Shown: positions 51,580 to 55,785, counted from the first letter of the stretch. The stretch is 64,000 nt of DNA from Candidatus Thorarchaeota archaeon (GCA_016839275.1 JAEOUM010000025.1:895-64894); one strand, 5' to 3'. Numbers and translations are program-made. The notes: generated by a model not told the origin, from the sequence alone.

Positions 51580-52347
51580 CTAGTCATCCCAATCAAAGTC
51601 ATCCACGTTATCATATGGAAATTCTTTCATAGTCTGCTTCATGGATTTAAGTGACTTCAAGCCTTTTAGACCCTTCATCGCCTCAGTCACTGATTCTGTG
51701 ACAATCTGACCAATGTCCATGAAACTGTCCAAGCCATGAACTCCACCCTTGCCAACGATGATTTGTTTGCCATTCTTTCCTGTAACGACAACTCCAGACT
51801 TACTGACCGAAACTAAGTTATCATCGCCCAAGACGAAGACCTGCTTTCCATATGTGAAGACTAGTCCTCTCTTCTCACTCAAGACAAGTATGAGTTTAAT
51901 CTCCTCAGAATCTCTGCCAAGGAAGATTTGTGATGGTTCTCTCTGGTCAATCTTAGTCTGCGAATGATCACCATTCAGTTGGTCCTTCATTGCTGACTCA
52001 ATTTCTGCCATAAATGATTGAGTGTTCTGAAATCCTTGTTTCTGAAGATCTGACGCATCTGGACTCTTTGATATGTTCTCCAGAGAGACGACTCCTATGT
52101 AGAACTGGACACCTTGCAGAGAGCCAGATATCGATTCACCCATTGCACCAACCTTGGTTTCAGCAATGGCATCGACAGCAAACTGAGAGGGCCCTACAAA
52201 TGCAGCACCAACTCGTACGTCATCCTCGAGAAGGTAGACCCATACACAGCCAGCCTCCATCTTTACAAAGGCCTTCTCGTGGGAGATTAGCTCATGGTTT
52301 TCAGTAGTGACCATGATGGTAGTATCAGGTGTCAATTTTCTCATCAC
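51580..52347 (-). CDS. hypothetical protein ending in an acidic DDFDWDD tail
   Basis: 255-aa soluble ORF with no motif I can name. It lies 12 nt downstream of the ArsR-like gene, whose product ends DDLDWED. Confidence 0.55.
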   Translation of the reverse strand: MMRKLTPDTTIMVTTENHELISHEKAFVKMEAGCVWVYLLEDDVRVGAAFVGPSQFAVDAIAETKVGAMGESISGSLQGVQFYIGVVSLENISKSPDASDLQKQGFQNTQSFMAEIESAMKDQLNGDHSQTKIDQREPSQIFLGRDSEEIKLILVLSEKRGLVFTYGKQVFVLGDDNLVSVSKSGVVVTGKNGKQIIVGKGGVHGLDSFMDIGQIVTESVTEAMKGLKGLKSLKSMKQTMKEFPYDNVDDFDWDD

Positions 52348-52359
52348 ATTCTTCCTCCT

Positions 52360-53289
52360 TTAGTCCTCCCAGTCCAAATCGTCAATATCATCCTCATCCT
52401 CATCCTCGTCTTCAGCCTCTTCAAGTGCATCCTGTGCCTCTTCAATCTTATCAGCTACCTCTTCAATCTGGTCCTGAGCTCTTTCAATCTGCTCTGCAAC
52501 TCTTTCAAGATGCTCAGCTGCAGCTTCAAGATCTTCCTCATCCTCAATCACAACAGTGTCACCCTCATCATCAGAAGACTCATCGAACTCAATATCAACT
52601 CTGGTTTCGCCATTGTTTCCAGTCTGTTCTCTCTGTCGCTCAACCCTGTGAGTAAGCCATTGGGCTAGACGATATGCCAGACGACCTTCAACCGTGACAT
52701 AGTATGTTCCTCGTACCTCTCCCTTTACTACATATCCAGCTTCGACAAGGGGATTCAGATGGTGTGTGAGAGAGCTGCCTGTCTTCTCCGTGAAGCTCTC
52801 AATCTCATTGAAGGTCTTCCCCCCACTCTTGAGATAATCCAGAATACCTAGACGCTCTTCACTTCCTAGAGGCGCAACTATCTTTGCTATTCGTTCGGGA
52901 GTAATTGCCTCAATATCCTTCCTTCTTGCAGCCTTCCCTCTTCTACCGCTTGTGCGAATACGAACACCAGGTATCTTGAAGCCTTTAGCAATACCATCGA
53001 AGTCCTTGATGGACGTTTCAATTGAACGACCAAGATCATCCATCATGTCCTCAAGACTATCTGTGATTCCAGCAATGTCAATTTTCATAGGTCTTACTGG
53101 TCGCACGGGGCGGGGTTCTCTTGGAGGCCGTGGAGGTCGTGGAATCTTACTATCTTTCAATGCACTAGCTCTCCTTCGAAGAATTTCTTCTTTCTCTCGC
53201 TTTGCATCCTCGACCTCTCGTCGGAGCTCTTCCTTAAGCTTTCGAACTTCTTCAAGTTCCTTCTTGATATCATCGATGTGTTCGGTCAA
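52360..53289 (-). CDS. ArsR-type wHTH protein with N-terminal coiled coil, proline-rich segment and long acidic C-terminal coiled coil
   Basis: The core RLGILDYLKSGGKTFNEIESFTEKTGSSLTHHLNPLVEAGYV is an ArsR/SmtB-type HTH. Flanked by KELEEVRKLKEELRREVEDAKREKEE, PRPPRPPREPRPVRPVRP and EDEDEDEDDIDDLDWED. Confidence 0.65.
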   Translation of the reverse strand: MTEHIDDIKKELEEVRKLKEELRREVEDAKREKEEILRRRASALKDSKIPRPPRPPREPRPVRPVRPMKIDIAGITDSLEDMMDDLGRSIETSIKDFDGIAKGFKIPGVRIRTSGRRGKAARRKDIEAITPERIAKIVAPLGSEERLGILDYLKSGGKTFNEIESFTEKTGSSLTHHLNPLVEAGYVVKGEVRGTYYVTVEGRLAYRLAQWLTHRVERQREQTGNNGETRVDIEFDESSDDEGDTVVIEDEEDLEAAAEHLERVAEQIERAQDQIEEVADKIEEAQDALEEAEDEDEDEDDIDDLDWED

Positions 53290-53322
53290 TGTATTTCAAC
53301 AACTGTACATTATTACAGTTTG

Positions 53323-53330
53323 TATATAAA
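53323..53330 (-). promoter_or_regulatory. TATA-like box for the ArsR-like operon
   Basis: tatataaa (TTTATATA on the coding strand), ~34-41 nt upstream of the ATG at 53289. Confidence 0.4.
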
Positions 53331-53726
53331 TGTATCTAATTACAGTAAGAGGGTTGATGCCGACTCGTTGTCAGTGATAGATCATTACCCACTGGGAGCA
53401 GACATGGAATCTTTAATCGTACTGAGAATCGAAATCATAGTGATGAAGCAGAAAACACCAAACAAACTCTACTCTCTGTGACGCAAATAATTGAATCTCT
53501 AAGACAGCCAAGAACTAGTTGAGATGCCCACGAAATTAGAATTCTACATGGTTTATGACGTCAAATGAGGACTCTGTTGGAACCCATCAAACAAGCCTGC
53601 TGAGGCATTCTATGCGACATATGCTTATTAACAAGATGACTAAGAAAAGCTTCACCTTTGCTTGGGGGTGCGGAAACAACTTGTTGCCAGCCTTTCCACG
53701 CAGGAAACCACATTAGGGGTAAAAAA

Positions 53727-53960
53727 ATGTCAAAGAAAGCAAAACCAGCGGCTAAGCCAGCTAAGAAAGCAGCAGCTAAGGCACCAAAGTATACCTTCTA
53801 TGTTAAGAAGGCAATACAAGACTTTGCCAGAGACAACGACATGATGGTCGGAAGTGATGCATACGATGCATTCAACATGGCCGTCAACCACATGCTGCTC
53901 GATGCTGCAGGACGCTGTAAGGATAACAAGCGAAAGACCCTGAAGGCTTACGACTTCTAG
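53727..53960 (+). CDS. histone-fold (DUF1931-like) protein with Lys/Ala/Pro-rich N-terminal tail
   Basis: The tail MSKKAKPAAKPAKKAAAKAPK is followed by YVKKAIQDFARDNDMMVGSDAYDAFNMAVNHMLLDAAGRCKDNKRKTLKAYDF, which fits the helix-loop-long helix-loop-helix histone-fold pattern ending in RKT.k..D. A GGGGT Shine-Dalgarno-like element lies 7 nt upstream of the ATG. Confidence 0.6.
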   Translation: MSKKAKPAAKPAKKAAAKAPKYTFYVKKAIQDFARDNDMMVGSDAYDAFNMAVNHMLLDAAGRCKDNKRKTLKAYDF

Positions 53961-53984
53961 GTCACTAGTATCAGGAAACCGGTA

Positions 53985-54026
53985 GGGCAGTCACTGACTG
54001 CCCACCTTCGTTTCTCCACTTCTTTT
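53985..54026 (+). terminator. hairpin plus T-rich tract after the histone-fold gene
   Basis: GGGCAGTCAcTGACTGCCC followed by accttcgtttctccacttctttt. Confidence 0.55.
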
Positions 54027-54066
54027 ATCGTTCATCCAATGCTTGGAAGATGAGCCTTATTACTGA

Positions 54067-54375
54067 ATGAGTGGACATTCATCCGACAATAGTATGAATC
54101 AAATTTGGGAACATCCAGAGCATCCACGGGGATATTATGCCTGCTTATTGATGATGCTTCTTCCTATATTGACCATTCTCATGCTCCCGGTAGTCACAAT
54201 GGGAATTGACCAACTACCTTACGCCCTCTTAATGAGCACCTTTGTGATTCTACCTCTTCTGAGCTGTGGTCGTCAGTTAAAGGGAAGACCACTCTTTCAG
54301 TCCTCATACCACGGAACGCCCTTTATAGAAGAGGTCATGGATATCTCAGAGGATGCGAGAGTATCTGAAGGGTAA
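54067..54375 (+). CDS. hypothetical membrane protein
   Basis: 102 aa with two TM helices. No motif. Confidence 0.35.
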   Translation: MSGHSSDNSMNQIWEHPEHPRGYYACLLMMLLPILTILMLPVVTMGIDQLPYALLMSTFVILPLLSCGRQLKGRPLFQSSYHGTPFIEEVMDISEDARVSEG

Positions 54376-54872: not shown

Positions 54873-55062
54873 GCACATGCAATAGGTAAAAGGGCTCTTC
54901 TATACGTCCAAGTAGGAGTAATGTGCATTATCACATTTTGGAGCAGCATAATCCAGATACTGTACAGAGAGCATCTCTGTCATAGGCAGTCATTACTTGT
55001 GTGTAAATTGATTCACAATCGATAAAAGAGAAAGCTTTTGCAGCAGGACCTGAGGCGTGAGA

Positions 55063-55785
55063 ATGGAGTTCTCCAATGTCTATGAAGATGCAACTCGGGC
55101 GGATGCATATTCGCGACTTGAGTTTCCTGGGACATACTACTTGGCATTCAGGGACTTACCCACCATTATCTCGAAGCATGTCAAAGGAAGAAGGGCTATG
55201 GACTTTGGATGCGGTTCTGGACGCTCAACCAGATTCTTGCAAAGACTTGGGTTCCAAGCGGTTGGGATTGACATTTCTGATGAGATGGTAAAGCGAGCAC
55301 AAGAGTTCGATCCAGAAGGTATCTATCAAGTCATCAAAGAGGGCGACTTTAGATCATTTGAACCGGGAACATTCAATCTCATCTTGTCTGCATTTCCCTT
55401 TGATAACATACCTACAATGGAAAAGAAAGTCACGAATCTAAGAGGATTAAAAGACCTTCTCAGAGATGATGGTGTTCTGATCAATCTTGTATCATCACCA
55501 GAGATTTACACACATGAATGGACATCATTCTCCACAAAGGACTTTGTTGAGAACAAAGGTGCAACAACCGGTGATATCGTACGAATCATTCAGCTGGATA
55601 TTGATGACAGGAGACCTGTAAGCGATATTCTCTGGACAGCTGAGTCATATCAAGAAACATATCGAAATGCTCAGTTTAAGATTGCTCATATCTACAAGCC
55701 TCTAGCAAGAGAAGATGAGCCATACAAGTGGGTTAATGAAACTAGAATAGCACCTTGGACTATCTATGTGCTTCACAAAGAGTGA
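55063..55785 (+). CDS. class I SAM-dependent methyltransferase
   Basis: Motif I AMDFGCGSGRSTRFL, motif II GIDISDEMV, and the post-II block FNLILSAF. Confidence 0.75.
   Translation: MEFSNVYEDATRADAYSRLEFPGTYYLAFRDLPTIISKHVKGRRAMDFGCGSGRSTRFLQRLGFQAVGIDISDEMVKRAQEFDPEGIYQVIKEGDFRSFEPGTFNLILSAFPFDNIPTMEKKVTNLRGLKDLLRDDGVLINLVSSPEIYTHEWTSFSTKDFVENKGATTGDIVRIIQLDIDDRRPVSDILWTAESYQETYRNAQFKIAHIYKPLAREDEPYKWVNETRIAPWTIYVLHKE

Follow-up and report, generated by a model that had tools for sequence, protein, structure and literature searches.

Face-to-face (FtF) histones were described in 2024-2025, and the category is formally defined by a torus-shaped homotetramer (Schwab et al., 2024, PMC11390915). 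Two of these proteins have been solved experimentally: HLp of Leptospira perolatii (PDB 9QT0, 9QT1, and 9QT2; bioRxiv 10.1101/2025.05.08.652872 / PMC12701072) and HTkC of Thermococcus kodakarensis (PDB 9F2C and 9T30; PMC11390915; bioRxiv 10.64898/2025.12.06.692711). The FtF signature in Haloferax D4GZE0 includes R41, N45, R47, T49, and D54 as well as the end of the chain at residue 55, the carboxylate of which is bound by R41 of the opposing dimer (Schwab et al., 2024, PMC11390915). In the numbering of the FtF HMM, the signature corresponds to R48, N52, R54, T56, and D61, and the DNA-binding lysine of α1 is K16 (PMC11390915).

Archaeal FtF histones "generally lack tails" (Schwab et al., 2024, PMC11390915). 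In the length table of the same study, most of the proteins are 55 aa long, but about 14 entries have 70-90 aa, including two with 77 aa; therefore, such proteins were present in that dataset, though they were not discussed (PMC11390915). Two groups of tailed histones have already been published. The first group comprises bacterial FtF histones (Haliangium D0LYZ1, Leptospirales) with positive, non-conserved, disordered N-terminal tails (PMC11390915). The second group comprises Asgard nucleosomal histones, namely Heimdall LC_3 HA and Loki HLoB / Hod HMpB, in which the N-terminal tails are disordered and lysine-rich (>30% Lys), measure 16-32 aa, and have a pI of ~10.5 (PMC6136690; PMC10919886; bioRxiv 10.64898/2026.07.02.735847). 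In the passages searched of the last of these sources, tails on FtF histones are not described and Thorarchaeota are not treated. In eukaryotes, histone tails play a central part in chromatin regulation, and Asgard tails have been used in arguments on the origin of the nucleosome. So far, the discussion of tails has concerned the nucleosomal-type Asgard histones, the archaeal FtF family being called essentially tail-less.

Lys/Ala/Pro-rich, Arg-poor, and acid-free segments with AKKA/PAKK/KPAA-like words are found in the H1 C-terminal domain, the mycobacterial HupB tail, and chlamydial Hc1. These are disordered DNA-condensing segments of ~100 aa, located C-terminally on unrelated folds (winged helix, HU). 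Core-histone tails are Gly/Arg-rich, unlike the H1-like composition of the long tails analyzed here. The likeness of the latter to the H1, HupB, and Hc1 segments is compositional only and does not imply homology.

The window analyzed in this study is a 64,000-nt stretch of DNA from Candidatus Thorarchaeota archaeon (GCA_016839275.1, JAEOUM010000025.1:895-64894). It contains a gene whose product, with a probability of roughly 0.75, would form a DNA-wrapping FtF tetramer, the four disordered +8 tails of which would add DNA binding, compaction, or bridging. What is new is a predicted Asgard FtF histone with a long, H1-like, and length-variable tail, and not a new class of proteins.

Coding region, translation start, and flanking elements

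The ORF at positions 53727-53960 of the plus strand (77 codons, from ATG to TAG) encodes a 77-aa product, MSKKAKPAAKPAKKAAAKAPK-YTFYVKKAIQDFARDNDMMVGSDAYDAFNMAVNHMLLDAAGRCKDNKRKTLKAYDF (Table 1). Its N-terminal tail, residues 1-21, consists of 8 Lys, 8 Ala, 3 Pro, 1 Met, and 1 Ser; neither acidic residues nor Arg were found there. Net charge is +8 for the tail versus +1 for residues 22-77, giving +9 for the monomer. AlphaFold2 pLDDT is below 50 at residues 1-15. The genome (2.58 Mb) was scanned for acid-free 21-aa windows with K≥6, A≥5, P≥2, and K+A+P≥16, using 10,363 mechanically defined ORFs of at least 50 aa. The tail analyzed here was the only such window, and therefore it is not a compositional by-product.

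Table 1. Features of the histone gene and its flanks, in coordinates of the window.
Feature	Position	Strand	Basis
Promoter-like block TTCTATGCGACATATGCTTATTAAC, candidate archaeal BRE/TATA	53608..53632	+	near-invariant in 22 orthologous loci
Predicted 5'-leader hairpin, GGGGG-rich 5' arm and pyrimidine-rich 3' arm	53657..53704	+	single-sequence folds
Shine-Dalgarno-like AGGGGT	53715..53720	+	6 nt 5' of ATG, conserved in orthologues
Start codon ATG	53727	+	ORF reading
N-terminal tail coding region, residues 1-21 (MSKKAKPAAKPAKKAAAKAPK)	53727..53789	+	composition, pLDDT, orthologue indels
Predicted α3-truncated (FtF-type) histone fold, residues 22-77	53790..53957	+	AlphaFold2, Foldseek, profile vs PDB
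Stop codon TAG	53958..53960	+	ORF reading
3' stem-loop, inner stem GGGCAGUC/GACUGCCC at 53985-54003, outer stem GGAAAC/GUUUCU	53974..54015	+	conserved, compensatory changes
TTTT run in T-rich tract, candidate archaeal termination signal	54023..54026	+	downstream of stem-loop

In-frame starts in the window are limited to the ATG at 53727, a TTG located 23 codons upstream, and the methionines M39/M40. No ATG, GTG, or TTG occurs between codon 1 and codon 39, and a start at M39 would delete the invariant α1 helix. The upstream TTG (53658) was rejected, because the conserved Shine-Dalgarno-like element would then lie within the extended ORF, and stops or frame-shifting indels occur in this region in relatives. 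Thus, stops 1-5 codons 5' of the equivalent ATG were found for 4 orthologous genes in the 6 loci checked (including L006, L008, and L010), and non-triplet indels are present upstream of the ATG in the alignment of orthologues. In ~30 orthologous loci, the 15 nt or so preceding the corresponding ATG contain GGGGT, GAGGT, GGTGG, or GAGG.

Alternatively, translation might begin downstream, with the Lys/Ala/Pro stretch lying outside the protein and the ORF extended only because the leader is rich in A. In archaea, AT-rich sequence upstream of a gene has been argued to be a trivial source of tails (Hocher and Warnecke, PMC10919886), and the database entry for HLp had a mis-called longer N-terminus. 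This alternative is nonetheless hardly credible here, given the loss of α1 with M39, the lack of intermediate starts, and the Shine-Dalgarno-like element directly 5' of codon 1. The frame of the tail also remains open through many whole-codon indels in more than 100 sequence clusters, while both ends of the tail, the MSKK(A)K... start and the ...(A)PKYTF junction, are kept among orthologues. Moreover, the tail codons, at 47.6% GC, are as GC-rich as the core (46.8%) and richer than the window as a whole (43.6% on average). The tail thus almost certainly belongs to the translated protein, because no alternative in-frame start is usable, orthologues keep the Shine-Dalgarno-like element, and relatives have upstream stops.

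The promoter-like block is located 95-119 nt upstream of the start codon, and in the 22 loci the intergenic sequence flanking it diverges. This block is a plausible BRE/TATA promoter element; the 5' leader would then be ~70-75 nt long. Downstream of the gene, the inner stem contains 8 bp, including 6 G-C pairs, and the two-tier hairpin recurs in nearly all orthologous 3' regions examined. In 28 loci, 7 consensus pairs were found for the inner stem, 5 of them with compensatory double changes; one pair changes from CG to UA in 10 sequences. T-runs of 4-7, about 50-67 nt past the stop codon, are present in most orthologues and may act as archaeal termination signals. With these elements, the gene looks like a self-contained and strongly signaled unit.

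Of the 22 orthologous 5' leaders folded, nearly all were predicted to have a comparable long hairpin at the same place. The z-scores range from -1.5 to -3.7 for most orthologues, but the leader of the gene analyzed here has a z-score of +0.26 and is no more stable than shuffled sequence. No consensus structure was obtained with RNAalifold for the MAFFT alignment of the 5' leaders, and no Rfam match was found in the region 53290-54100. The leader hairpin shared among orthologues is treated here as a lead only.

An earlier sequence-only reading of this DNA had reported the composition of the tail, the length of the product, an own Shine-Dalgarno-like element, and a strong hairpin terminator. The tail sequence proved to be exactly as quoted and the product 77 aa long, the element recurs among orthologues, and the conserved G-C-rich hairpin is indeed followed by a T-rich tract. 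The same reading would have had to be given up if the true start lay downstream of the tail, a position disfavored by the distribution of start codons given above.

Histone fold and family placement

In the AlphaFold2 model, built with the family alignment as input, residues 27-36 form α1, residues 43-66 form a 24-residue α2, and residues 74-76 form a one-turn α3 of 3 residues. The mean pLDDT is 79, with values of 77-95 in the fold. α3-truncated histones are recognized by an α3 of 3-4 residues and an α2 shorter than that of nucleosomal histones, both of which were found in the model.

Matches to Pfam histone models were sub-threshold only: PF00125 had an E-value of 3.9e-4 (21.1 bits vs the cutoff of 26.4) and PF00808 an E-value of 0.12 (13.1 bits vs 21.4). 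No Pfam model for the H1 globular domain, H1-like proteins, or Hc1 matched at E≤1. In NCBIfam, no matching model was found, including archaea_histone (NF043032). As a positive control, the other histone of this genome (contig C72) matches the latter model with an E-value of 1.8e-24 (85.9 bits). Because matches in Pfam and NCBIfam are sub-threshold or absent, the family was assigned by profile searches of the PDB and by fold searches.

A single-sequence search of the PDB found 9QT0 (E=6.8e-4) and 9F2C (E=0.28). With a profile built from 92 relatives, the E-values were 8.8e-9 for HLp (9QT0) and 2e-7 for HTkC (9F2C), versus 0.03 for NF-YB and 0.47 for the bacterial-dimer histone HBb. In the Foldseek search against the PDB, HLp came first (TM 0.87-0.89, rmsd 1.3-1.4 Å), followed by HTkC (TM 0.84) and then HBb (TM 0.78-0.84). 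The remaining matches among the 50 listed are longer histone folds with TM ≤0.52. Thus, by both sequence and structure, the protein is closer to the solved FtF histones than to bacterial-dimer or nucleosomal histones.

The FtF signature is represented in this protein by R63, N67, R69, T71, D76, and the C-terminal F77, with spacing identical to that in D4GZE0. All six residues are invariant across the 92 relatives of the family alignment, and all complete family members stop one residue past the signature Asp. R63 corresponds to R45 of HTkC, which is needed for tetramerization according to SEC-MALS. In HMMER alignments, K27, K28, R35, K70, and T71 map to residues contacting the DNA backbone in the HLp and HTkC co-crystals. 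The α1 lysines expected for the FtF family are also present: among the 92 relatives, K27 does not vary, and the conservation of K28 is 90% or higher. K27/K28 are aligned with the DNA-contacting K7/S8 of HTkC and A13/S14 of HLp. In place of R22, the minor-groove "sprocket" Arg of HTkC, the protein has Met, as does HLp. Judged from the sequence and the predicted structure, the protein is an α3-truncated FtF histone.

Of the two solved proteins, HLp is the best match both by sequence and by structure. It shares with the protein analyzed here the short α2, the one-turn α3, the R..N.R.T....D-x C-terminus, Met rather than Arg at the L1 sprocket position, and a short basic disordered N-terminus. Nevertheless, HLp is bacterial, is only 28-30% identical, has T rather than K in the RxT motif, and has ~6 disordered N-terminal residues versus the 21-residue Lys/Ala/Pro tail. 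Its tetramer and DNA complex were solved experimentally, whereas for the Thorarchaeota protein both are deduced. HTkC is an archaeal FtF histone that has the tetramerization Arg, the RKT motif, and DNA-contacting lysines at the start of α1, and it shares its genome with nucleosomal histones, as is the case here. On the other hand, HTkC is a tail-less protein of 59 aa, its L1 loop is 2 residues longer and carries the minor-groove arginine, and it has His at the position of the motif Asp, which is kept here as D76.

Two other assignments were considered. The first one, a DUF1931/Aq_328-type histone-fold protein that does not bind DNA and has a role outside chromatin, is already contradicted and is extremely improbable. 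Indeed, several family members are labeled "DUF1931 domain-containing protein" by NCBI, and the PDB entry 9QT0 bears the DUF1931 label as well; the 9QT0 protein, however, is the DNA-wrapping FtF histone HLp. In Pfam, no DUF1931 match was found at E≤1, and neither Aq_328 nor Thermus 1WWI appears among the PDB sequence matches or the 50 Foldseek matches listed. The name DUF1931 proper refers to a pseudodimer of two histone folds that lacks DNA-binding residues (PMC11390915; bioRxiv 10.1101/2025.05.08.652872), but the protein analyzed here has one 56-residue fold and keeps both the RKTxxxxD motif and the α1 lysines.

The second assignment, a canonical nucleosomal (HMfB-type) archaeal histone that carries a tail and forms hypernucleosomes like the tailed Heimdall/Loki histones, is very improbable. 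The weak PF00125 and PF00808 matches and the JGI annotation of relatives as "histone H3/H4" would agree with it. However, α3 is a single turn, the chain ends one residue past the Asp of RxTxxxxD, the archaea_histone model matches the other histone of the genome and not this protein, and all the best structural matches are α3-truncated histones.

With regard to the fold, the sequence-only reading held in part. The helix-loop-helix pattern that it had noticed in the ~55-aa segment is borne out by the three helices of the model, and its exclusion of the canonical HMfB type agrees with the 3-residue α3, the PF00808 score below the cutoff, and the lack of a match to NF043032. The profile and structure searches that it proposed returned histone folds only. 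Its suggestion of a DUF1931/Aq_328-type fold, on the contrary, has to be abandoned. Its general idea of a nucleoid protein that combines a minimal histone fold with a basic, H1-like tail and has its own expression unit is supported.

Distribution and evolution of the tail

A word-indexed search found 163 clusters of related sequences, with the fold 62-93% identical to the query; the named clusters are nearly all from Thorarchaeota MAGs. Matches at E≤1e-3 were found in 150 of the 301 Asgard species genomes sampled, including 72 of the 77 genomes of the window's own family. Thus, this histone family is near-universal in the Thorarchaeota family sampled.

The tail, measured as the residues before YTF, has a length of 5-25 aa over 120 clusters and of 5-22 aa within the window's own GTDB genus. 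The series includes tails of 5 aa (MAKPK), 8-12 aa (MSKKKAKAPK, the mode), and 15-25 aa (MSKKAKPAAKPAKK...). Accordingly, the tail analyzed here is no isolated oddity: within one lineage of Thorarchaeota paralogues, it falls at the long extreme of a continuous range of 5-25 aa. The phylogenetic distribution of the tail, a check suggested by the earlier reading, turned out to be variable in length and clustered on the phylogeny. On a tree of the 56-residue fold, which has few columns and an unresolved backbone, the length class changes 3-4 times, versus ~30 times with shuffled labels. A well-supported clade with short tails is nested among long-tail sequences; therefore, tails shrink as well as grow.

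Long tails contain 41% Lys, 32% Ala, 14% Pro, and 7% Ser, and no Arg was found in them. Tail length and the net charge of the fold are negatively correlated (Spearman rho = -0.77, a raw value that ignores kinship). As tails lengthen, the charge of the fold decreases from +4.6 to +1.4, and the charge of the tail increases from +2 to +8. Charge thus seems to shift from fold to tail.

Capture of an upstream start is considered an easy origin of archaeal tails (Hocher and Warnecke, PMC10919886). The tails described here did not arise in this way but grew by in-frame low-complexity expansion, because the MSKK start and the Shine-Dalgarno-like element are fixed and the variation is internal.

A second FtF gene was found in most genomes of the same genus. 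It encodes a tail-less protein of 56 aa (MSFVVKKAIQDYAKKKN...) with a net charge of +5 to +6 and is preceded by a strong GGAGG element. In the window's genome, this paralogue was not found even at E≤10; its absence is uninformative because the MAG is only 84% complete. The same MAG encodes one nucleosomal histone.

Outside Thorarchaeota, Lys/Ala/Pro tails were found on FtF-type histones of Kariarchaeaceae/Heimdallarchaeota, for example MARKKKAAAKKPAKKASKKSE- (77 aa), and tails of ~10 residues were found in histones of the Loki group. For a Kariarchaeaceae MAG, a 2026 preprint reports nucleosomal histones as absent and α3-truncated histones as abundant (bioRxiv 10.64898/2026.07.02.735847). Thus, a second and structurally different type of Asgard histone also grows lysine-rich tails, in Thorarchaeota and independently in Kariarchaeaceae, and these tails expand and contract quickly through in-frame low-complexity indels. 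The tailed bacterial FtF histones share with the protein analyzed here the FtF fold and the tail, but here the tail is a lineage-wide and length-variable trait of an Asgard paralogue. The tailed Asgard nucleosomal histones belong to the same phylum and have similar tails; however, they have a hypernucleosome-type fold with a full α3, unlike the α3-truncated FtF fold, and no evidence was found for a common origin of the tails. The tails described here have no direct bearing on the homology of eukaryotic tails.

Possible role of the tail and gene neighborhood

By homology with HLp and HTkC, two monomers would form a histone-fold dimer, and two dimers would form a flat ring-shaped tetramer. In this tetramer, R63 would bridge to the C-terminal carboxylate of F77 in the opposing dimer, and N67 would pair with R69. 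DNA would be wrapped round the rim, with contacts made by the N-terminal end of α1 (K27 and K28), R35, and the L2 loop (K70 and T71). Both tetramer formation and DNA wrapping are thus proposed from the homologues HLp and HTkC, with which the protein shares 28-31% identity.

The disordered tail begins directly before the predicted DNA-contacting end of α1. The four tails of a tetramer, with a total charge of +32, would most likely bind wrapped or neighboring DNA; they would raise affinity and promote compaction or bridging, like the H1 C-terminal domain or the HupB tail. This role is suggested by the composition, position, and charge of the tail. In-frame low-complexity indels between the fixed MSKK and PKYTF have made the tail grow and shrink.

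Rather than being a constitutive DNA clamp, the tail could also be mainly a regulatory platform, as in eukaryotic and Lokiarchaeial histones, the lysines of which are reversibly acetylated or methylated, tuning the compaction of chromatin. According to a 2026 preprint, acetylation and methylation occur on the lysine-rich tails of nucleosomal histones from Loki and Hod, including Loki HLoB (e.g., AKKKTPAKK), and Asgard GNAT and Sir2 enzymes act on the Loki HLoB tails in vitro (bioRxiv 10.64898/2026.07.02.735847). A tail with 8 Lys and no Arg also suits charge switching by acetylation. However, the modification data come from other Asgard classes and from histones of the nucleosomal type, no gene for a writer or eraser was found linked to the histone at this locus, and the rapid turnover of tail length fits bulk charge better than position-specific marks. 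Regulation as the main role of the tail is unlikely, though modification of the tail is compatible with the DNA-wrapping tetramer.

A broader reading of the DNA-wrapping tetramer is a "core plus linker" particle in Thorarchaeota, in which the fold would have lost most of its positive charge during the expansion of the H1-like tail, and DNA affinity, bridging, and fiber formation would be set largely by the fast-evolving, acetylation-switchable tail, balanced against the tail-less FtF paralogue, possibly within mixed tetramers. This reading is speculative and quite unlikely. Tails of 5-25 aa on a near-constant fold, together with the tail-less paralogue, represent a natural allelic series for the contribution of the tail.

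The histone gene is divergent from an ArsR-like ORF (52360-53289, minus strand). The 437-nt spacer noted earlier between the two holds if the latter ORF starts at TTG. The ArsR-like gene, the gene behind it for a 255-aa protein, and two genes for ABC exporters are syntenic with the histone gene in most of the Thorarchaeota-family loci examined. The divergent ArsR-like pairing is absent at the Heimdall and Loki FtF histone loci, and hence the synteny may be inherited gene order only. In many loci, both the ArsR-like protein and the 255-aa protein end in an acidic Trp-containing peptide (...LDWED). As a speculation, these neighbors could dock on the basic histone, like the acidic-aromatic motifs of eukaryotic histone chaperones.

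Tailed and tail-less FtF histones

Tails rich in Lys, Ala and Pro were also found on face-to-face (FtF) type histones of another Asgard class, Kariarchaeaceae/Heimdallarchaeota (loci L045, L047-L050), with examples such as MARKKKAAAKKPAKKASKKSE- and MAKKAAAKKPAKKSGGE-. Thus, tails on Asgard FtF histones are recurrent, which runs against the description of archaeal FtF histones as generally tail-less (Schwab et al. 2024, PMC11390915). The exhaustive profile search additionally revealed a separate group of FtF-like folds (proteins P0171, P0176, P0208, P0237, P0239, P0258, and others) that share the motif WLIVAKAVR..LKN....MHCGSDALPALNAK...NGRKTLKACDF and carry Ala/Pro/Thr/Lys-rich N-terminal extensions of 40-115 residues.

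Most of the same-genus genomes contain a second FtF paralogue, a tail-less protein of 56 aa (MSFVVKKAIQDYAKKKN...) with a net charge of +5 to +6. Its genes were found at loci L041-L044 in the genomes G120, G103, G191, and G188; no such gene was found in the 84% complete genome to which the window belongs. FtF histones with and without a tail thus occur side by side, making mixed tetramers of the two possible.

Cys64 of the tailed histone is shared by 90% or more of the family members, and a few have Thr instead. Because this residue is located near the predicted dimer-dimer interface, it could make the formation of tetramers sensitive to redox state or metals.

Features of the histone locus, in window positions
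Feature	Position	Strand	Description
ArsR-like gene and the gene for a 255-aa protein behind it	51580-53289	minus	Divergent from histone gene
Promoter-like block TTCTATGCGACATATGCTTATTAAC	53608-53632		~95-119 nt upstream of histone ATG; near-invariant
Predicted leader hairpin	53657-53704		3' of promoter-like block
Cys64 codon	53916-53918		Directly after tetramerisation Arg (R63-C64)
3' stem-loop	53974-54015 (inner stem 53985-54003)		Downstream of histone gene; structure conserved in 28 orthologous loci
T-run	54023-54026		After 3' stem-loop
Class-I SAM-dependent methyltransferase gene	55057-55785	plus	1.1 kb downstream of histone gene, same strand

Conserved elements flanking the histone gene

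A long hairpin with GGGGGAG and CTCC-like arms is predicted in the histone leader of nearly all orthologues; this 5' leader region had no match in Rfam. Since the pyrimidine arm is similar to an anti-Shine-Dalgarno sequence, it is conceivable that this arm could instead pair with the real Shine-Dalgarno element.

Immediately 3' of the stop codon lies a conserved CTAGTAT-like motif. Among the 28 orthologous loci, the 3' stem-loop shows compensatory changes in five of its seven pairs, and one pair is changed from CG to UA in 10 sequences. Its conservation and its 3' position in a histone mRNA recall the eukaryotic histone stem-loop, a likeness that does not imply relatedness.

Neighbouring genes

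The ArsR-like and 255-aa proteins end in ...DDIDDLDWED and ...DDFDWDD, respectively, and this acidic, Trp-containing C-terminus is conserved. In most of the Thorarchaeota-family loci examined, the two genes keep synteny with the histone gene; the pair was not found at the Heimdall or Loki FtF loci. Synteny of the methyltransferase gene with the histone gene was observed in one close relative (L005) but not in L007. A PRPPRPPREPRPVRPVRP stretch is also present within the ArsR-like protein.
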